Part shown: positions 17,025 through 58,730 of the stretch, one piece after another
Layout: each line of letters starts with the position of its first letter
Position numbering within the stretch: position 1 is the first letter of the stretch
DNA from: an uncultured archaeon
GTDB lineage: Archaea; Aenigmatarchaeota; Aenigmatarchaeia; CG10238-14
Length of the DNA: 64,000 nt
Direction: 5' to 3'
Assembly: GCA_964392445.1 (NCBI GenBank)
Contig: CAYMPD010000004.1
Location: forward strand, 3,728-67,727
Notes under the pieces: model-generated
What the model was told of the DNA's origin: nothing
Seen by the model: the letters and a program-made list of their open reading frames with translations, nothing else
Databases searched by the model: none
Program-made: the position numbers and the translations under genes

Positions 17025-17147
17025 TTCCTTATTTTATATGAAATAGAAAAAAATCTCCCACCTCAAATTATAAATACTAGTTTAACTATTATGCAGTAAC
17101 AAGGTGAAAACAATGCGAGGCGAAAATGTTCACATCAGGTGAATTAG

Positions 17148-17375
17148 TTCACTCGTAAGAATAGTTCTGAAGAAATTTTTGCTTCTAAGATTGCTTCTAA
17201 GGGTAGAATAACTATACCGATTAGTCTTAGGGCTAAACTTGGTTGGTTAGAGGGTAAAGAAGTTAAAATTAGAGTTTCTGGGGATAGTTTAATTCTTTCT
17301 GTTAATGGTCAGAATGGTGTAAAGGTTAGCATAGATGATTGTGGCTCATCTGGACCTGGTTCAATTCCAGATTGA
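17148..17375 (+). pseudogene. AbrB/SpoVT-like DNA-binding reading frame with no canonical start; its 3' end reads through tRNA-His
   Basis: Manual translation ...SKIASKGRITIPISLRAKLGWLEGKEVKIRVSGDSLILSVNGQNGVKVSIDDCGSSGPGSIPD*; in-frame TAG at 17145. Confidence 0.55.
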
Positions 17376-17377
17376 CC
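17307..17377 (+). tRNA. tRNA-His(GTG) with an atypical acceptor/T-stem junction
   Basis: D arm GTGT/GCAT, anticodon arm GATGA-TTGTGGC-TCATC, T arm CTGG-TTCAATT-CCAG; 3' acceptor strand 2 nt short. Confidence 0.7.
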
Positions 17378-17402
17378 TTGGTAAAAATAGAGGTGAATAA
17401 AA

Positions 17403-18134
17403 ATGAAAAAAATAGGAATAATAGGTGGTATGGGACCTGAGGGAACTGCGGATTTGTACATGAAAATAGTAAGATATTACCAGGATAATTTTGGAGCAAA
17501 GTACGATAAAGATTTCCCACCGATGATGATCTACAGTGTCCCAATACCTGATCTAGTTGAAAATCTGGAAAATGAAAAAATAACTTTGGATATGTTATCT
17601 GAGGCAGTGAAGACATTGGAAAATGTTGGTTGCGATTTCCTAGTAATAGCGTGCAACACAGTCCAGTTTCTATTAGATGATCTTAGAGAATCAGTTAAAA
17701 TACCAATCCTGGGAATAGCCGAAATAAGTGCTAGGTTTGTGTCAAACAAAAGTTATAAAAAAGTGGGAATATTAGGAACAGAGGCAACTATATCTCAGAA
17801 AAAAGTTTATGAAAAAGATTTTCAGGAAATTGGGGTTGAATTAATTAAACCAATGAAAGATGACCAAGAAGAATTAACTAGAATAATAATGAACCAACTT
17901 GCAGGTGAAACAACAAAAAAGGAAAAAGATAACTTGAAGACGATAATTGAAAACTTGGAAACCCGTGGAACAGAAGCTGTTTTAATAGCATGTACAGACT
18001 TACCACCAATAATAAATCAGGAAGACTTTGATATCCCGATAATCGATTGCACACAAGTTTATGCTGATGAGGCGGCGAGATTATCTACTTTTAAATCTAA
18101 ATTCAATAATAATGTAGGAGATAATTATGTCTAA
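17403..18134 (+). CDS. Aspartate/glutamate racemase family protein (two-Cys type)
   Basis: IGIIGGMGP, IACNT and IACTDLP motifs. Confidence 0.9.
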   Translation: MKKIGIIGGMGPEGTADLYMKIVRYYQDNFGAKYDKDFPPMMIYSVPIPDLVENLENEKITLDMLSEAVKTLENVGCDFLVIACNTVQFLLDDLRESVKIPILGIAEISARFVSNKSYKKVGILGTEATISQKKVYEKDFQEIGVELIKPMKDDQEELTRIIMNQLAGETTKKEKDNLKTIIENLETRGTEAVLIACTDLPPIINQEDFDIPIIDCTQVYADEAARLSTFKSKFNNNVGDNYV

Positions 18135-19428
18135 TAAATTCCAACCACCAAGAGGGACAAGAGATTTTCTCCCAGAAGAAATGATACTTAGGGAAAAAGT
18201 GTTTGATACTGTGAAAAAGGTTTTTAAAAGATATGGTTATGATCCCGCTAAAACACCTGCTTTTGAAAATTTCGATCTTTTTGCAATGAAAGAATCAATC
18301 GGTGAAGGAGAACAGGATAAATTGTATGTATTCGAGGATAAATCTGAGCGAAAGTTAGCGTTAAGATTCGATCAAACAGTTCCATTAGCAAGATTGGTAG
18401 CCACAAATCCTCAGTTACCAAAACCTTTCAAAAGATATGAGATATCAAGAGTTTGGAGATATGAGGATACAAGAAGAGGACGTTACCGTGAATTCTGGCA
18501 ATGCGATGTTGATATAGTCGGTTCAAGAGAAATGTCGGCAGATTCTGAAATAATTGATTGTGCGTTGACAATAATGGAAGAATTGGGTTTTGAGGATTGC
18601 TACGTTAGAATTAATAACAGAAAATTATTATCAGGGATAATCCGATTTGCAGGAGTTGAAGAAAATAAAGTAATAGAAGCATTCCGAACGATTGACAAGC
18701 TCGACAAGATTGGGATTGGTGGTGTTAAAAAAGAATTGAATGAAAGGGGAATAGAAGACCAAACCGCAGAAAAAATAATCGAAATAATAGGATTAGAAGG
18801 GGAACCGAGAGAAATATTGTCCAAAGTCAAAGATTATTTTGGTGATATCAAAGAAGGTCTGGAAGGTGTGAAAGAGCTAGAAGAATTAATTAAGAATCTT
18901 GAGATGATGGGAAAAGAAAATGTTATCTTTGACATAAGTCTCGCTCGTGGTTTGGATTATTACACTTCAACAATTTTTGAGCTTATGGGAAAAGACGAGA
19001 AAATAGGTAGTCTGGCAGGAGGAGGAAGATACGATAAAATGATCGGTGCTTTTACTGGCAACAAGAAAGAAATACCTGCAGTGGGCATAGCATTAGGAAT
19101 AGAAAGAATAATTGATCTTCTGAAAGAAAGGGGAGGTATTTCCCAAAAAACTTACACCAAGGTTTTCGTAATAAATGTTAATGATCAAGTAAGGGAAAAA
19201 TCTGTAAAAATATCCCAAGAACTCCGTCAATCAGGAATAAACACCCAGAATGATATCATGGGAAGACCGCTAAGTAAACAGCTTGACTATGCCAATTCTC
19301 TAGGAATACCTTACACAGTTATAGTCGGTCCAAAAGAAGTGGAATCAAATAGATTCAAACTCAAGAACATGAAAACAGGAGAAGAAACAGAATTAACTCT
19401 CGAAAAGATAATCGAAACTCTTTCTTAG
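18127..19428 (+). CDS. hisS: Histidyl-tRNA synthetase
   Basis: PRGTRDF, LRFDQTVP, GRYREFWQCD, ARGLDYY, GGGRYD, GIERI. Confidence 0.97.
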   Translation: MSNKFQPPRGTRDFLPEEMILREKVFDTVKKVFKRYGYDPAKTPAFENFDLFAMKESIGEGEQDKLYVFEDKSERKLALRFDQTVPLARLVATNPQLPKPFKRYEISRVWRYEDTRRGRYREFWQCDVDIVGSREMSADSEIIDCALTIMEELGFEDCYVRINNRKLLSGIIRFAGVEENKVIEAFRTIDKLDKIGIGGVKKELNERGIEDQTAEKIIEIIGLEGEPREILSKVKDYFGDIKEGLEGVKELEELIKNLEMMGKENVIFDISLARGLDYYTSTIFELMGKDEKIGSLAGGGRYDKMIGAFTGNKKEIPAVGIALGIERIIDLLKERGGISQKTYTKVFVINVNDQVREKSVKISQELRQSGINTQNDIMGRPLSKQLDYANSLGIPYTVIVGPKEVESNRFKLKNMKTGEETELTLEKIIETLS

Positions 19429-34578: not shown

Positions 34579-34722
34579 TACTCCAGCTTTTCCTGTACCA
34601 AAACTATTTATACCAATTATGTCATTAGTTATGAGTGAAGTGATGGTGATGAACCGCCAATATGTAACGCTAGTATAGAAGAAAAAGATTTTACTAGTGA
34701 TAATAAGCTTCTTCTTGATTGT

Positions 34723-34977
34723 TTGAGGAAAGTTCTTGACGAGAGGCTAACACAAAAACAGAAATTCATTGTTAACTTTCTACGAGTGAACGGAGCAGAT
34801 AATATTACACGTTTGGTTGAATTTTTAGCAAAGGAAATGGAATGTTCTGAATCTTGTGTTTGGAATAATATTAATTCTTTGAAGAAATGTGGGTTGGTTG
34901 AGAATGGTTTGAATAGACCTGTTAAACTTTCTGGGGTTTGCAGAAGTATTTTTGGAGGAGATGATGATGAAAGGTGA
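34723..34977 (+). CDS. Small winged-HTH protein (start uncertain; frame open from 34639)
   Basis: LTQKQKFIV...SESCVWNNINSLKKCGLV helix-turn-helix pattern. Confidence 0.6.
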   Translation: MRKVLDERLTQKQKFIVNFLRVNGADNITRLVEFLAKEMECSESCVWNNINSLKKCGLVENGLNRPVKLSGVCRSIFGGDDDER

Positions 34978-34998
34978 ATGTTTTTACTTCTTTATTTT

Positions 34999-35114
34999 CC
35001 CGTGGTAGCTCAATCGCAGAGCGCCTGGTTGTAGATGGACATAGAATACTTCTTGTTATTCTTGAATGTCTGATAGTGACCAGAAGGTTGGGAGTTCAAT
35101 TCTCTCCCATGGGA
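34999..35114 (+). tRNA. tRNA-Tyr(GTA) with a 44-nt intron at 37/38 (35035-35078)
   Basis: Acceptor CCCGTGG/CCATGGG with C1-G72 and A73; D and T arms; BHB motif around the intron. Confidence 0.92.
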
Positions 35115-35130
35115 TCAGAGGCGATGAAAA

Positions 35131-35496
35131 ATGAGTAGAAATAAATATGGACTCAGAATACAGGGCGAAGTTAGAGATATCTATATTTTTGATTTTATGA
35201 ATGCTCTTCAGGAATATACAGGAGAGAATATTGGAGTTTTGAATGGTGGTGGAGGCTTAAAGAGACTAGTAAACAGTGATGTTGAAGGTAGAGTTAGAGG
35301 TGATTGGTATGAAATGATGGTCGAATGTGGTGAACCGAATAGTTTTATACCTTATACAAGGACTTTCCCTATTAGGTTGGATTTCAAAACCACTCCGAGA
35401 AACAAAAGAAGAGCAGATGAAACCATGGAAGATATAATTAGGATAGTGCTAGACAATGGAGGTTCAGTATTCTTCTATGGAGAGTTTGAGAGGTGA
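35131..35496 (+). CDS. Hypothetical protein
   Basis: ORF tightly packed behind tRNA-Tyr. Confidence 0.6.
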   Translation: MSRNKYGLRIQGEVRDIYIFDFMNALQEYTGENIGVLNGGGGLKRLVNSDVEGRVRGDWYEMMVECGEPNSFIPYTRTFPIRLDFKTTPRNKRRADETMEDIIRIVLDNGGSVFFYGEFER

Positions 35497-35502
35497 GGTA
35501 GT

Positions 35503-35913
35503 ATGTGGCTTGATAAAGTGAAAAAAATACTATATGGAATTTGTTTGACTTCTACAATTTCAGGTTGTGGAGATGTGAACATGGATACAAATAGAGAAAT
35601 ATCTAGGTCCGTAACGAGGGAAATTAAAGCAGAGAAATTTGAATGTAAAGAGATTTTTTATCCTGGGGCGGGGGGAGTTTTTGCGAAAGAAATAATAATC
35701 TCAATAGAAGATGAGAATGGAGTATTGTACAGAAGTAATGCTGTATGGCCGACTGAAAATGAAAAATTTGGTTACTTTGAAGAATTATGTGGTAGAATGA
35801 GAAGAGGGAAGATAGGAGCAGGAGCGGATGTAGCTCTTTACGGAGAAATAAGACCAAGAAGAGACAGTATTTTACAAGTAGATGAAATATACCTGACTGA
35901 TCTAGGTGATTAA
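35503..35913 (+). CDS. Hypothetical protein, possible lipoprotein
   Basis: N-terminal hydrophobic stretch ending ISGC; GAGG SD. Confidence 0.6.
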   Translation: MWLDKVKKILYGICLTSTISGCGDVNMDTNREISRSVTREIKAEKFECKEIFYPGAGGVFAKEIIISIEDENGVLYRSNAVWPTENEKFGYFEELCGRMRRGKIGAGADVALYGEIRPRRDSILQVDEIYLTDLGD

Positions 35914-35914
35914 A

Positions 35915-36598
35915 ATGAAAACAATAGGAATAATAGGTGGTATGGGACCTGAAACAACTTCAAAATTTTATTTAGAGCTAATTAGGTTGTCTAGAAGGGA
36001 AATGGGTCATTTACCATCAATCATAATAGAAAGCTTACCGATTAGTTTTAGTTCGGAAGAGAATTTTGTTAAAAACGGAATTAAAGAATCTGAATTCGAG
36101 AGATTAATGATTAAATCGGCGAAACGTTTCGAGGAGATAGGGGTTAATCTGGTAGTAATCCCATCAAATACAGCCCACTTTTTCATAGAAAAAGTCAGGG
36201 AAAGCACAAGTATTCCTGTGATGAATATCATAAAGGAAACTACTAAATTGTGTCTCAAAAGGGGTTTTAGGAAAGTTGGGGTTCTGGGGACTGAAATTAC
36301 AATGAAAAATAGATTATATGAGAAAGAATTCGAGAAATTTAACATCGAAATTATTAAATTGGATAAGAAAAATCAGGAAGAATTATCAAATATAATACAT
36401 AGAATAGTCACTGGTGATACTAAAACAAAAGATCAAAAAAATTTAGAAAATCTAATGGAAATTTTAAAAAATAAGGGTGCAGAAGTAATAATTTTGGGTT
36501 GCACAGACCTTCAAAATCTAATCAAAGATAGTTCTAATATTGAAATAATCGATAGTATGCATACTCTTGTTGAAGCAACATTCAGGAAATTATTATGA
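35915..36598 (+). CDS. Aspartate/glutamate racemase family protein (first Cys replaced by Ser)
   Basis: IGIIGGMGP, IPSNTAH, LGCTDL. Confidence 0.88.
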   Translation: MKTIGIIGGMGPETTSKFYLELIRLSRREMGHLPSIIIESLPISFSSEENFVKNGIKESEFERLMIKSAKRFEEIGVNLVVIPSNTAHFFIEKVRESTSIPVMNIIKETTKLCLKRGFRKVGVLGTEITMKNRLYEKEFEKFNIEIIKLDKKNQEELSNIIHRIVTGDTKTKDQKNLENLMEILKNKGAEVIILGCTDLQNLIKDSSNIEIIDSMHTLVEATFRKLL

Positions 36599-36629
36599 TT
36601 AAAAAAACAAAAATTATGTAGGTGATAAT

Positions 36630-37100
36630 GTGTCAAAAGTAGATCAAGTAAAACAGTTCATAGAAGAAAATAATCTAGAAGCAGAGATAATAGAGCATGA
36701 AGAATCAGGATTAACAAGCGAACAGGCCGCAGAAGCAACAGGAGTAGATATAGAACAAATAATCAAAACACTACTATTCATGGACAAGAAACACAGACCA
36801 GTAATAGTAATCTGTCAAGGTCATAAAAGAGTCGATATGGATAAAGTGATAAAGTTTGTCGAACTAAAAAAACCAAGATTAGCTAGACCAGAAGAAATCA
36901 AACAATTACTGGGAACAGAACCAGGAGGAACACCACCGATATGCTTACCCGAAGATATACCAGTTCTGATGGATAAAGGAGTCACTAAACAGAAATTTGT
37001 GGTTGGGTCAGCGGGAACAAAATTCACTGGCTTAAAACTAAAACCATATGATATTGTTAAATTTACTAATGCTAAAATAGTTAGTATAACTGAGGGATAG
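36630..37100 (+). CDS. YbaK/EbsC (INS superfamily) aminoacyl-tRNA deacylase
   Basis: IIKTLLF, GTEPGGTPP, VVGSAG. Confidence 0.85.
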   Translation: MSKVDQVKQFIEENNLEAEIIEHEESGLTSEQAAEATGVDIEQIIKTLLFMDKKHRPVIVICQGHKRVDMDKVIKFVELKKPRLARPEEIKQLLGTEPGGTPPICLPEDIPVLMDKGVTKQKFVVGSAGTKFTGLKLKPYDIVKFTNAKIVSITEG

Positions 37101-37248: not shown

Positions 37249-37257
37249 GTGAAATTA

Positions 37258-38343
37258 ATGGATTTAGAAAAAAGAATGGAATTAATTAAAAGACCTCCAA
37301 CTGAAGAGGTAATTACAGAGGAAGACCTGAAAGAATTATTGCAAACAAAAGATCATCCAGTAGCTTATGACGGGTTTGAAACTTCAGGACTTCTACACTT
37401 AGCATCAGGGCCCTTACGTGCAATTAAAGTTCAAGATATGCTTGATGCAGGTTGCGAATTCATTCTATGGATAGCCGACTGGTTTGCTTATATCAACAAC
37501 AAAATGGGCGGAGATTTAGAACTCATCAAAAAAACAGGCGAATATTACATCGAAGGTTGGAAAGCGTGTGGAGTCGACATGAAAAAAGTCAAAGTTATGT
37601 GGACGAGCGATGCCGTAAAAGACCCGAATTACTGGAAAGGTGTTATAGATGTTGCCAAGAATACAACCGTCAACCGAACAATCCGCTCAGGACCAATAAT
37701 GGGAAGAAGCGAGTCAGAGATGCAATACACGGCACAGTTGTTCTACCCGATGATGCAGGCGTGGGATCCATTTTATCTCAAAGCTGATATTCTCCAATTG
37801 GGAATGGATCAAAGAAATGCTACAGTTCTTTCGCGTGAATTAACTTCAAAGTTGGGTTATTCGACAAGGGTGTGTGTTCATCATCATTTATTAGCAGGTT
37901 TGCAGGGACCAAAAGAAGGAAGAATGGGACAAGAAACAGCAACAGTTCAGTTAGAAGACAAGATGAGTAAATCCAAACCAAATACAGCAATATTCATCCA
38001 CGACAGTAAGAAGGAAATCCAGGAAAAAATAAATGGTGCATTTTGCCCAGAAAAAGTTGTTAAAGGGAACCCAGTTTTGGAAATATGGAAGTACATAGTC
38101 TTCAGAAAATTTGATTCTAGAACTATAAAAAGACCGTCCAAATTCGGTGGAGATATTACAGTCGGAAATTACGAAGAACTAGAAAATAAGTTCAGAAAAG
38201 GAGAATTACACCCATTAGATCTGAAAAAAGAAACATCCGAAGCTTTAAACGAAATAATAAACCCAATAAGGAAACATTTCGAAAGAAACAAAAAAGCTAA
38301 GAAATTGTACGAAACTGTAAAAAAGGCCAAAATAACCCGCTAA
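37258..38343 (+). CDS. tyrS: Tyrosyl-tRNA synthetase (archaeal type)
   Basis: [12 protein letters not shown] (HIGH), ADWFA, YPMMQ, GMDQ, KMSKS. Confidence 0.95.
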
Positions 38344-55819: not shown

Positions 55820-55914
55820 CGCCTCGGGTCGGACTCGAACCGACGGCCTTCTGGTTAACAGCTTCAGCCCTGAAAAAGTCAGGTCAACTGCTCTACCTAC
55901 TGAGCTACCGAGGC
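55820..55914 (-). tRNA. tRNA-Asn(GTT) copy 2 with a 22-nt intron at 30/31 (55863-55884)
   Basis: GCCTCGG/CCGAGGC acceptor, G73, same anticodon arm and BHB as copy 1. Confidence 0.9.
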
Positions 55915-57309
55915 TTGAATAATTTCACGAATTTCTCTTGGGTTTCCCGCTGATTTTATTTCTTTTAAAACCTGTCCAACCAAAAAATCCAATGCTTTTT
56001 CTTCTCCAGATTTATAATCTTTCACTGCCTCTTTGTTTTTCTGTAGTATTTTATCAACTATTTTTTTAAGTTCTTGTTTACTCACCATTTTTAGACCTTT
56101 TTTACTTAAATATTCTTCGGGGTATTCACCAGTCATGGTTATTTCTTTAATCATTTCTTTTCCTAATCTTTTCGGGATTTCACCTTTATCCATCATTTCA
56201 AGGAATTTAGCAAAGTTTTCTACAGATATTTTGGAGTTTTTAATCCTGATCCCCTGATAATTCAAGCACTTCAGAAGATGAGTAATCATCCATTTAGCAA
56301 TCATCTGGGGATTTTCTAATAATTCACAGCATTCTTCGAAGAATCTAGAAAAATCCTTCCCTGTGTAAACTATCACTTTGGCTTGATAATCTGATAAATC
56401 ATACTTTTCCTGGTACCTTTCCACTAAATGATCAGGTAATTCGGGCAGAGTGGTCTTTATTCCTTGTTTCCATTCATTATTAATTTCGATTTTAGTCAGG
56501 TCTGGCTCAAAAATGTACCCATAATCCTCTTCCATCTCCTTTGTTCTCAGAGTTTTAGTTATTCCTTGAGATTCATCAAATCCTCTTGTTTCTCTTTCAA
56601 CCTTCCCTCCATTTCTAAGTACACTTTTTTGCCTAACAACCTCATAATTCAACGCTTTTTCAATCTTAGCAAAACCACTCATATTCTTGATTTCAACCCT
56701 TTTCCCGCCTTCTATTGATATGTTGACATCTACACGCATAGATCCTTCAAGTGAAGAGTCATAAACTCCAAGATATTCAAGCATAGTCGAAAGTTTAGTC
56801 AAGAATTCCCTTACCTCTTTCGGGTCTCTAAAATCGGGTTCGGTTACTATCTCACATAAGGGGGTCCCAGAGCGGTTATAATCGATTAGAACATACTTGG
56901 ATGTAGTTATGTCTCCACCTACATGAACAAGTTTAGCAGGGTCTTCCTCCAAGTGAATCCTAGTAATGTTAATTTTTTTCTCCTCTCCGTTTGAGTTAAT
57001 TTTTAAGTAACCTTTTCTTGCGAGGGGAATTTCAAATTGAGTTATCTGGAAGTTCTTTGCCATATCGGGATAAAGATAGGATTTTCTAGAGAAGAACATT
57101 TTTGTTAATATTTCACAATTTAACGCATGAGCAATTGATATACCATAATCCAACGCTTTCTTGTTGACTTTTGGTTTTGATCCTGGGAAACCAAGACATA
57201 TAGGACAGGTAGTAGAGTTAGGTTTAGAGTCTCTATAATCCGTGGAACAGGAGCAAAATAACTTTGATTTTGTGTTTAACTGTACATGAATTTCTAATCC
57301 TATTTTCAT
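55897..57309 (-). CDS. gatB: Asp/Glu-tRNA amidotransferase subunit B
   Basis: IGLEIHVQL, YPDMAKNFQITQ, HLEED, DYNRSGTPLCEIVT, MRVDVNIS, VEIKN. Confidence 0.96.
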   Translation of the reverse strand: MKIGLEIHVQLNTKSKLFCSCSTDYRDSKPNSTTCPICLGFPGSKPKVNKKALDYGISIAHALNCEILTKMFFSRKSYLYPDMAKNFQITQFEIPLARKGYLKINSNGEEKKINITRIHLEEDPAKLVHVGGDITTSKYVLIDYNRSGTPLCEIVTEPDFRDPKEVREFLTKLSTMLEYLGVYDSSLEGSMRVDVNISIEGGKRVEIKNMSGFAKIEKALNYEVVRQKSVLRNGGKVERETRGFDESQGITKTLRTKEMEEDYGYIFEPDLTKIEINNEWKQGIKTTLPELPDHLVERYQEKYDLSDYQAKVIVYTGKDFSRFFEECCELLENPQMIAKWMITHLLKCLNYQGIRIKNSKISVENFAKFLEMMDKGEIPKRLGKEMIKEITMTGEYPEEYLSKKGLKMVSKQELKKIVDKILQKNKEAVKDYKSGEEKALDFLVGQVLKEIKSAGNPREIREIIQASVAQ

Positions 57310-58730
57310 TTCATCACAGGTTGGTTTTTGTGGTAATCAGTATTTTGTTCAAATGTGTGAGCGACCTGAATCATCTTTTTCTCTTGTAAATGATCAGCAA
57401 TTATATGCATCCCAACTGGTAAACCCTCTGAGAAACCTCCTGGAACAGATATCATCGGAACACCTGCTAAGTTTGGGGGGACTGTTAGAATGTCGAGCAT
57501 ATAGGTCTGAAGTGGGGTCAAATCCTCAATTTCCGAGAATTTTGGTGGTAGAATTGGCATGGTCGGAGAAACAAGCACATCATACTTTTTGAAAGCTTTC
57601 TTGAAGTCTTGAATCACTAGTGTCCTTAATTTCATCGCTTTTAGGTAGAATTGATCCCTATATCCAGCCATTCTAGCATAAGTTCCCATGATTATCCGTC
57701 TTTTAGCTTCTTGTCCAAAACCTTCTTTTCTTACCCTTGAGAAATAATCGTTGAAACTCTCTCCTGTTTTAATTTCATTTTCCAAACCATACCTTAATCC
57801 ACACAGTTTCGCAAGGTTGGTAGAAGTTTCAGACATAGCAATTATGTAATAACTAGGTAAAGCAACATCTGTGTGTGGGAGAGAGCATTCTTCGTATTTA
57901 GCACCTAAATCTTCTAGAAGTTTAATGTTTTTCCAAATTTTGTTCTTGATTTTTTCGTTTACTCCACCGCTGAAATATTCTTTCGGAACCCCAATCTTCA
58001 TACCTTTGACATCATTTTTCCAGTAATCAGTATAATCCTCTTTTTCAACATCAAGTGAAGTAGAATCAATGGAATCATGACCAGAAATTACCGAAAATAA
58101 CAGTGAAGAATCCTCAACTGTTTTACCAATTGTTCCAATCTTATCCAGACTATTAGCATAACTAATCAAACCCCATCTAGAAACCGTTCCATAAGTTGGT
58201 GTTATCCCCACGGTATTTGTAAAAGATGTAGGACAACTTATAGACCCACCAGTGCTCTCGGCAATAGCAATATGTGGAAAATCAGAAATACTTGTCAAGC
58301 AACCCGCTCCCCCTGAACTTCCTCCACACGTTCGTTCGATATCCCAAGGATTTTTAGGAAATCCAAACGGAGTGTTAATGTTAAAAACACCATGACCAAA
58401 TTGATCCATACTAGTTTTCCCAATTATTACTCCACCCTCTTCTTTAACTCTTCTGGTAACATAAGAATCAAACGGAGGAACATATTTATGAAGAATCCTT
58501 GAGCCTGCAGTAGTTTTAAGTCCTTTTGTGCATATATTGTCTTTAACTGAGATTGGAAGGCCGTAAAGCTTCCCTTTTTTAAGCGATTTTACGTCGATTT
58601 TTTCGTTTATTGTAACAAATGGTAAATATTTCTCTTGAATTTTTCGAGTTTTTTCCAGAGTTTTAGTTAAGAAATCCTCTAAATTTAATTCCCCATTCCT
58701 GACTTTTGTTAAATACTCTTTCAGTTCCAT
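57306..58730 (-). CDS. gatA: Asp/Glu-tRNA amidotransferase subunit A
   Basis: ISVKDN, GGSSGG, STGGS amidase signature. Confidence 0.95.
   Translation of the reverse strand: MELKEYLTKVRNGELNLEDFLTKTLEKTRKIQEKYLPFVTINEKIDVKSLKKGKLYGLPISVKDNICTKGLKTTAGSRILHKYVPPFDSYVTRRVKEEGGVIIGKTSMDQFGHGVFNINTPFGFPKNPWDIERTCGGSSGGAGCLTSISDFPHIAIAESTGGSISCPTSFTNTVGITPTYGTVSRWGLISYANSLDKIGTIGKTVEDSSLLFSVISGHDSIDSTSLDVEKEDYTDYWKNDVKGMKIGVPKEYFSGGVNEKIKNKIWKNIKLLEDLGAKYEECSLPHTDVALPSYYIIAMSETSTNLAKLCGLRYGLENEIKTGESFNDYFSRVRKEGFGQEAKRRIIMGTYARMAGYRDQFYLKAMKLRTLVIQDFKKAFKKYDVLVSPTMPILPPKFSEIEDLTPLQTYMLDILTVPPNLAGVPMISVPGGFSEGLPVGMHIIADHLQEKKMIQVAHTFEQNTDYHKNQPVMK

Follow-up and report, generated by a model that had tools for sequence, protein, structure and literature searches.

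The autoregulatory +1 frameshift of E. coli prfB, the release factor 2 gene, takes place at CUU-UGA-C (PMC5009743). The archaeal locus described here resembles prfB in its short zero-frame ORF behind a Shine-Dalgarno (SD) sequence and ATG, in a proposed +1 slip from NUU at a slow A site, and in a functional product that lies in the +1 frame, with the shift serving as both sensor and effector; antizyme frameshifting follows a similar sensor-effector logic. Unlike prfB, the slow codon would be a pathway-cognate sense codon (His, Tyr, Pro, Cys, Trp or Asn) and not a stop, two sites stand in series in the His cassette, the system is archaeal and proposed from sequence comparison, and the +1 frame passes through a tRNA gene. 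Similarities are also found with 'hungry codon' +1 frameshifting and with the CUU-AGG-C site of yeast Ty1 (Gallant; Farabaugh; PMC5009743), where a shift-prone NUU in the P site is followed by a sense codon slowed by a limiting aminoacyl-tRNA. In those cases the codon is hungry because of starvation in the laboratory or because it is rare and fixed, whereas here the identity of the codon tracks the regulated aminoacyl-tRNA synthetase (aaRS)/tRNA operon, which implies a physiological sensor.

Attenuation of the hisL/trpL type and the T-box also sense the charging of a cognate tRNA and control aaRS and biosynthesis genes, with cognate codons in the leader. They differ from the present locus, which has no terminator/antiterminator hairpins or specifier loop, carries a single sensor codon and would use the reading frame as its read-out; at gathering score, Rfam returned only tRNA from the window, and the sole repeats are short GTGAA/TTCAC arms. 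To our knowledge, archaea have no T-box system and no established leader-peptide attenuation. A full-text literature search found no description of such a frameshift-leader system.

The window, that is, the whole stretch of 64,000 nt that was analysed, belongs to an archaeal Aenigmarchaeota metagenome-assembled genome (MAG; G000; 1.2 Mb, 34% GC, 54 contigs, 95% complete) in which several tRNA genes contain introns. The best reading of positions 17055-19428 is a histidine operon with a promoter, a frameshift leader, an AbrB-like protein, an embedded tRNA-His, a racemase-family gene and a histidyl-tRNA synthetase (HisRS). The explanation favoured here, with a probability of roughly 0.7, combines a decaying, redundant tRNA-His with an AbrB-like protein reached by a double +1 shift that senses charged tRNA-His. 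The features are as follows.

17055..17079, plus strand: promoter-like box ctcccacctcaaattataaatacta, a putative promoter, and an archaeal TATA-like element about 30 nt 5' of the SD
17101..17107, plus strand: SD-like AAGGTGA, 5 nt before the ATG at 17113, conserved in cassettes
17113..17142, plus strand: leader ORF 1, MRGENVHIR and a TGA stop that lies inside an invariant 15-mer
17128-17134, plus strand: proposed shift site 1, GTT CAC A, within leader ORF 1
17126-17158, plus strand: upstream ORF 2, MFTSGELVHS and a stop
17132..17158, plus strand: +1 segment, TSGELVHS and a stop, with the invariant 15-mer GGTGAATTAGTTCAC (17138-17152)
17147-17153, plus strand: proposed shift site 2, GTT CAC T, within the +1 segment
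17151..17375, plus strand: AbrB/SpoVT-like frame, beginning TRKNSSEEIFASKIASKGRITIP (PF04014; domain about 17187-17297; stop TGA 17373-17375)
17307..17377, plus strand: damaged operon-embedded ('type B') tRNA-His(GTG), found by ARAGORN and Rfam
17403..18134, plus strand: Asp/Glu/hydantoin-racemase-family gene with its own SD, AGAGGTGA (Pfam PF01177, 138 bits)
18127..19428, plus strand: HisRS (Pfam tRNA-synt_His, 162 bits, and HGTP_anticodon), the start of which overlaps the end of the racemase-family gene by 8 nt

The original prediction had noted a tRNA-His with an acceptor 2 nt too short, with normal D, anticodon and T loops and an encoded G-1, and each of these points was recovered. ARAGORN called tRNA-His(GTG) at 17307-17378, while Rfam gave the window copy 35.3 bits against a gathering score of 29 and placed a 2-column gap in its 3' acceptor strand. 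The likeness to tRNA is regarded as real because its E-value is 0.0011 (all 4227 families on the window) and because orthologous tRNAs occupy the same place in other genomes. G-1 (17307) and C73 (17377) are both encoded as a pair, the anticodon lies at 17341-17343, and the anticodon arm GATGA/TTGTGGC/TCATC (17333-17349) presents GUG in a 7-nt loop on a 5-bp stem. The D arm and a T loop reading TTCAATT are also present.

The 3' acceptor strand reads CCAGA-TT-GACC in the window compared with CC(G/C)G(G/A)-CTCTGGC-C in the orthologs (alignment A1); two nucleotides are absent between 17373 and 17374, where TT--GACC corresponds to CTCTGGCC in the orthologs. A continuous 7-bp acceptor stem is not found in the window copy, and pairing requires either a 2-nt bulge (A4 G5) or unpaired A6 and A7. 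Pair 49-65 is a C-A mismatch, and positions 32/38 are T/C in place of the C/A of all seven other copies in alignment A1. The GC content has fallen to 45%, with 13 GC-to-AT changes relative to the G004 copy. Low GC alone does not indicate decay, as other embedded copies are AT-shifted but intact (L118, 48% GC).

A search of the genome for a second tRNA-His, which had been suggested as a check, found a canonical copy on contig C17 (C17:10879-10953; G-1, C73, CCA, 61% GC, stem GCCCGGT/GCTGGGC) that scores 52.3 bits in Rfam compared with 35.3 for the window copy. Stand-alone tRNA-His genes of the C17 type were also found in four genomes of the same genus, G001 (100% identical), G002, G003 and G004 (on C57), and in G010 and G017. 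Orthologs of the window copy, placed behind the same AbrB frame, occur in G004, G013, G010, G016, G017, G053, G054 and G057, and those of G004, G013, G010, G053, G054 and G057 are canonical, with Rfam scores of 47.7 and 50.0 bits. Alignment A1 shows pairing in 98% of its cells and changes on both sides in 12 of the 22 pairs. The cassette itself is absent 5' of the racemase gene in G001, where a transposase is in place, and at HisRS in G003, which has a plain promoter there. The tRNA has been deleted from six metagenome loci, cleanly in L102, L120, L140 and L152 and also in L101 and L125; in the last two the AbrB frame is fused directly to the racemase gene.

This comparison shows the window copy as an apparently redundant tRNA-His in decay, and not a reduced working tRNA: the canonical C17 tRNA-His covers decoding, so the embedded copy would be free to decay. 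The histidine decoder of the genome is predicted to be the C17 copy and not the window copy. Decay was among the options offered in the original prediction, and it is the one that the canonical C17 copy, the canonical embedded orthologs and the losses in several lineages bear out. Like other redundant tRNA copies on their way to becoming pseudogenes, the window copy has a stem lesion and an AT shift, scores lower with the covariance model and coexists with another gene for the same isoacceptor; it is unusual for such a copy to lie inside the translated frame of a regulatory operon and to have had its stems kept by compensation until recently. The tRNA anomaly itself can be considered ordinary, which its operon setting is not, and where an odd isolated tRNA is met in a MAG it is advisable to look for a second copy first and to propose unusual tRNA biology only afterwards.

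Two other options had been raised with decay, namely a reduced but functional tRNA-His co-evolving with the adjacent HisRS and a transcript repaired by editing. Retention of G-1, C73 and the GUG anticodon would suit either of them, but the genome has a canonical tRNA-His, a finding that the original prediction had itself named as counting against a functional copy, the HisRS has a standard domain make-up and the orthologous embedded copies have full stems. Nothing was found in support of co-evolution with HisRS or of repair by editing, and we know of no archaeal editing that inserts acceptor-strand nucleotides. Both options are considered highly improbable. The tRNA was also considered as a scar of mobile-element integration (att) and rejected as such, given the housekeeping flanks, the synteny conserved across families and the fact that the copy does not duplicate the C17 tRNA.

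An error of assembly or sequencing would make the 2-nt gap an artefact and leave the embedded tRNA-His intact and functional as in relatives. The rest of the cloverleaf is indeed kept by compensatory changes, and a called protein of a near relative (P0002) ends in ...GSIPGSGL, which implies an intact TTCTGGC strand. Restoration of the two nucleotides would in addition move the end of the frame to a TAA at 17398-17400, the usual position 2 nt before the racemase ATG. The site (CCAGATTGACC), however, is not a homopolymer, the window copy has further lesions of its own (the C49-A65 mismatch and T32/C38), embedded copies are dispensable and have been lost many times, and the allele turned up in no second assembly when metagenome contigs were scanned for its pattern. 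Such an error is judged unlikely.

Somewhat less unlikely, though still doubtful, is that the short-stemmed RNA works in cis within the operon transcript, as a tRNA-like structure such as an RNase P/Z cut site or one that the ribosome has to unwind, and not as a decoder. This would account for stems that are kept while the sequence drifts. Four stem pairs have changed on both sides compared with G004, three of them to a pair type absent from the other aligned copies, and the compensatory pairs peculiar to the window copy (T2-A71, A7-T66 and T29-A41) indicate that the structure was selected until recently. The D and anticodon arms are intact, as is the T arm apart from the C49-A65 mismatch, G-1 and C73 have been retained, and the frameshift frame crosses the tRNA in every cassette that still holds one. 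The many lineages without any tRNA at the locus argue against a cis-acting role, as does the weak RNAfold prediction (-20.1 kcal/mol, z -1.5, no cloverleaf), although minimum-free-energy folds of unmodified tRNAs are weak evidence either way. The window tRNA sequence may still act as an RNA structure; as a tRNA, it is here regarded as decaying.

An AbrB-like frame with no start codon that runs through the tRNA to a stop at 17375, preceded by two short ORFs in other frames (17113-17142 and 17126-17158), was likewise part of the original prediction and was recovered. The frame matches PF04014 (AbrB/MazE) with 34.1 bits against a Pfam cut-off of 24.7 (E = 2.6e-8), and is open from 17148 to 17375 with no ATG, GTG or TTG, including the stretch between the TAG at 17145 and the domain. 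The core SKGR(I/V)(T/S)IP...LR.KL of the window protein is that of the SpoVT/AbrB/MazE family and scores above the Pfam cut-off; unlike that family, the window frame lacks both its own start and a partner toxin gene, and its C-terminal tail is encoded by a tRNA gene. The overlap with the tRNA stands as predicted, but the frame is not the oddity that it had been taken for; it is a conserved coding frame, most likely reached by +1 shifts from the upstream ORFs. The start codon is missing in nearly all of 39 distinct cassettes, and the exceptions, e.g. L027, have CAG for TAG. AbrB is conserved as a protein with many third-position changes; it is under purifying selection and is a conserved coding frame, not a pseudogene.

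All 39 distinct loci share the same cassette order, which consists of the SD and ATG, "MRGExVH", a second "GELVH" and AbrB, each step being +1 at NTT-CAY. The 5' region kept in relatives comprises the promoter-like box (cccacYtYaa..tatttata, 5' of every cassette), the SD with its ATG, a 9-10-codon ORF of the form MRGEx(V/L/F)H with synonymous changes at the Arg, Gly and His codons, and the 15-mer GGTGAATTAGTTCAC. Cassettes from at least 11 genomes carry this 15-mer without change, as do the AbrB cassettes found within a set of 56 metagenome stretches. Its three readings are a TGA stop in the first frame, GELVH in the +1 frame and, in the AbrB frame, a TAG for which certain cassettes have CAG. 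In 39/39 cassettes the AbrB domain keeps its phase with the 15-mer: the distance from the 15-mer to the KGR codons takes five values (46, 49, 52, 55 and 61 nt), all of them 1 mod 3. Site 1 is separated from the 15-mer by 4 or 7 nt only, never by 5 or 6. The 15-mer is also a 5+5 inverted repeat (GTGAA-N4-TTCAC), and could be an operator or hairpin. Within the genome studied no extra copies of the cassette were found. The same 15-mer was seen as tandem short repeats in Bacteroidota-like/lake metagenome contigs (L052, L055, L100, L103, L113, L121, L135, L138 and L141); lacking the AbrB cassette, these are probably unrelated repeats.

The sole consistent path from the conserved ATG to AbrB appears to be two successive +1 shifts, and this frame architecture is apparent when the cassettes are compared. 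The ribosome would translate from the ATG to GTT|CAC and shift by +1, continue through ACA TCA GGT GAA TTA to the second GTT|CAC, shift again, and proceed with ACT CGT into AbrB; the proposed entry from the SD and ATG at 17113 would explain why AbrB has no start codon. At each site the peptidyl-tRNA on NUU would re-pair on UUC while the His codon in the A site awaits His-tRNA(His), such that a scarcity of charged tRNA-His would lead to more synthesis of the AbrB-like protein. The zero-frame ORF (17113-17142) ends three codons past site 1. Entry at site 2 is confined to a window three codons wide, GTT CAC TCG, as an AbrB-frame TAG lies directly 5' of the site and a frame-2 stop (TAA) follows two codons after it. 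In L029, site 1 has been lost and the ATG is directly in frame 2, so a single shift suffices. Every site has NTT followed by C or T, giving UUC or UUU in the +1 frame, with the slowness of the A site deduced only from the match between codon and pathway. Re-pairing from GUU to UUC keeps two of three pairs, which counts against the proposed slip. The trans-frame junction implied for the AbrB-like protein is ...MRGENV-TSGELV-TRKNSSEEIF..., and that for the cysteine synthase described below is predicted as MTGELV-KDDPLELIGNTPL.

Alternatively, AbrB may start at the GTG at 17139 inside GGTGAA, with the TAG at 17145 read through (e.g. as Gln) and the ATG-led ORFs acting as ordinary regulatory uORFs. 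CAG stands in place of TAG in some cassettes and also in called proteins beginning M.SQKVNQFT, and the stop of uORF1 overlaps the GTG (GTGA) like a termination-reinitiation signal. Against this, TAG ends 107 of 502 long ORFs in the genome and no tRNA with a CUA anticodon was found there; L029 does without the GTGA coupling and keeps the layout with its ATG in frame 2, and the same TAG layout stands before the cysteine synthase and the Trp-operon regulator. A GTG start would also offer no reason for the codon after NTT to match the regulated pathway in six operons. It is an improbable alternative for AbrB; in some leaders, however, the GTG within GGTGAA is followed by an open +1 frame, and for the genes concerned a GTG start may be used.

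Four further routes to the AbrB frame were rejected. Reassignment of TAG, or pyrrolysine, conflicts with the TAG usage given above and the lack of a tRNA(CUA) in the genome, where all three stop codons are in normal use. A -1 frameshift from uORF1 would have no conserved slippery heptamer, and the TGA of uORF1 precedes the AbrB-frame TAG. An archaeal splicing (BHB) intron joining the uORF to AbrB was dismissed since GTGAAC...GTTCAC forms a symmetric 3x3 internal loop and not a bulge-helix-bulge. A non-canonical start (ATT/ATC) near SKID is not conserved, L003 having GTC at that place.

The histidine leader has counterparts elsewhere in the same genome, recognized by the pattern SD, ATG, x, GGT GAA, nnn, nTT and a sensor codon. 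The sister leaders are as follows.

MKGECF-Y (Tyr), G000 window: before tRNA-Tyr (34999-35114) and then TyrRS (37249-38343)
MGECF-P (Pro), G000: before tRNA-Pro(UGG) and a gene with a ProRS-like N-terminus (putative, without Pfam confirmation)
MTGELV-C (Cys), G000: +1 fusion to a PALP cysteine-synthase-family gene, then CysRS
Four Trp leaders, G000: before a wHTH gene, a racemase-family gene and two unknown ORFs
MHGECF-N (Asn), G000: before gatCAB, with a +1 frame that stops on the gatC ATG

Together with the histidine leader these make six candidate cognate leader types (His, Tyr, Pro, Cys, Trp and Asn) in one genome, and on comparison the putative sensor codon matches the pathway regulated. 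Further downstream in the Trp operon lie a YbaK-like gene and a class I W/Y synthetase, both without leaders of their own. Ordinary initiation would be unable to make the proteins of the Cys and Trp operons, because their conserved enzyme N-termini (IGNTPL and IGGLGPE) lie 5' of any possible start, +1 to the leader ATG. A count over 118 genomes of the order gave 94 matches to the leader pattern and 24 to a reversed control, and the sensor codons among these order-wide matches are dominated by Trp (21), Cys (13), His (11) and Asn (9). Loci sampled from other genomes had a His leader before a HisRS paralog, an Asn leader before a class II D/K/N synthetase (with an ATGA overlap), a Trp leader before a racemase-family gene and a Cys leader before a PALP enzyme and also before an HTH protein.

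It is reasonably likely that these leaders constitute a genome-wide, ribosome-based regulon in Aenigmarchaeota, in which a seven-codon leader (M-x-G-E-x-V/L/F/I and the cognate codon) shifts +1 when the charged tRNA is scarce. The shifted ribosome would make a small DNA-binding regulator or the enzyme itself, and would also read on through the embedded tRNA gene as far as the aaRS gene start. If true, such a regulon would do in archaea what the T-box and attenuation do in bacteria, and the damaged tRNA-His would be a relic, or a surviving structural part, of the device. The histidine locus and its five sister leaders offer a testable candidate for a sensor based on the choice of reading frame at a single cognate codon. 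The AbrB and wHTH regulators, the cysteine synthase, the racemase-family genes and the HisRS paralogs are overlooked or cut short by gene callers, and as a result such genes are under-reported in the annotations of small genomes.

In three operons (His, Tyr and Pro) the +1 frame crosses the embedded tRNA from end to end, and in the Tyr operon the intron too. Its stop in relatives overlaps, abuts or falls within a few nucleotides of the ATG of the next gene. Insertions within the tRNA or ahead of it leave the frame unchanged (24 nt and 15 nt in G017, 15 nt in G016), and in L118 the AbrB frame, the tRNA and the racemase gene form a single frame of 305 codons. The shifted ribosome would continue through the tRNA sequence to the downstream gene starts, which suggests that it is meant to reach these genes by translational coupling; perhaps it also competes with excision of the tRNA. 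In the window, the TGA at 17373-17375 is a product of the deletion junction (TT^GACC), and hence the lesion breaks both the tRNA and the usual coupling geometry. Reading frames through tRNA genes can be deliberate.

Several further observations were made on these operons. The Tyr leader region (34961-35138, plus strand) reads ATG ATG ATG AAA GGT GAA TGT TTT TAC, or MMMKGECF-Y, directly 5' of the intron-bearing tRNA-Tyr; its +1 frame, from 34986, passes through the whole tRNA-Tyr and stops on the ATG of the next gene. The 3' genes of this operon are a racemase paralog (35906-36598), a YbaK-like gene (36603-37100) and TyrRS (37249-38343). A wHTH-like frame at 34639-34977 (within 34631-34977, plus strand) has no clear start, TTG 34723 being a possible ordinary one; the uORF MSEVMVMNRQYVTLV, which ends in a stop, overlaps this frame and contains a Tyr codon, but its phase is -1/+2 and not +1. 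The Asn leader (59075-59005, minus strand) encodes MHGECF-N-LV and a stop behind an SD, with a +1 frame of 17 codons, and is followed, after gatC, by gatA (57306-58730) and gatB (55897-57336), provisionally identified from sequence and gene order. Directly before the Cys leader, at C13:15240-15384 of the same genome (L059:341-485), there is a possible intron-bearing tRNA (GCCGAGG...TGCAA...GGGTTCGACTCCCATCCTCGGC) for which ARAGORN gave no call, and a LAGLIDADG-like frame lies just 5' of it (L059:1-513).

Single-shift His leaders (M-x-G-E-x-V-H) were observed in G016 (L073/L022), G019 (L021), G009 (L079) and G065 (L090). They stand before a SAM methyltransferase-like gene, a HisRS-family paralog and an ORF of 400 aa without a Pfam match, which might also belong to a His regulon.

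Separate paralogs of the Asp/Glu-racemase family occur in the synthetase operons for His, Tyr and Trp (17403-18134; 35906-36598; and, on contig C19 of the same genome, L060:960-1646), and in other lineages the racemase-family gene is either fused to AbrB or has a Trp leader 5' of it. In two genomes of the same genus (L092 of G001 and L093 of G004), HisRS carries an extra N-terminal domain of about 165 aa as a fusion (beginning MKARLESAQHIL); this domain is absent from the HisRS of the genome studied and may resemble an AlaX/ThrRS editing domain.
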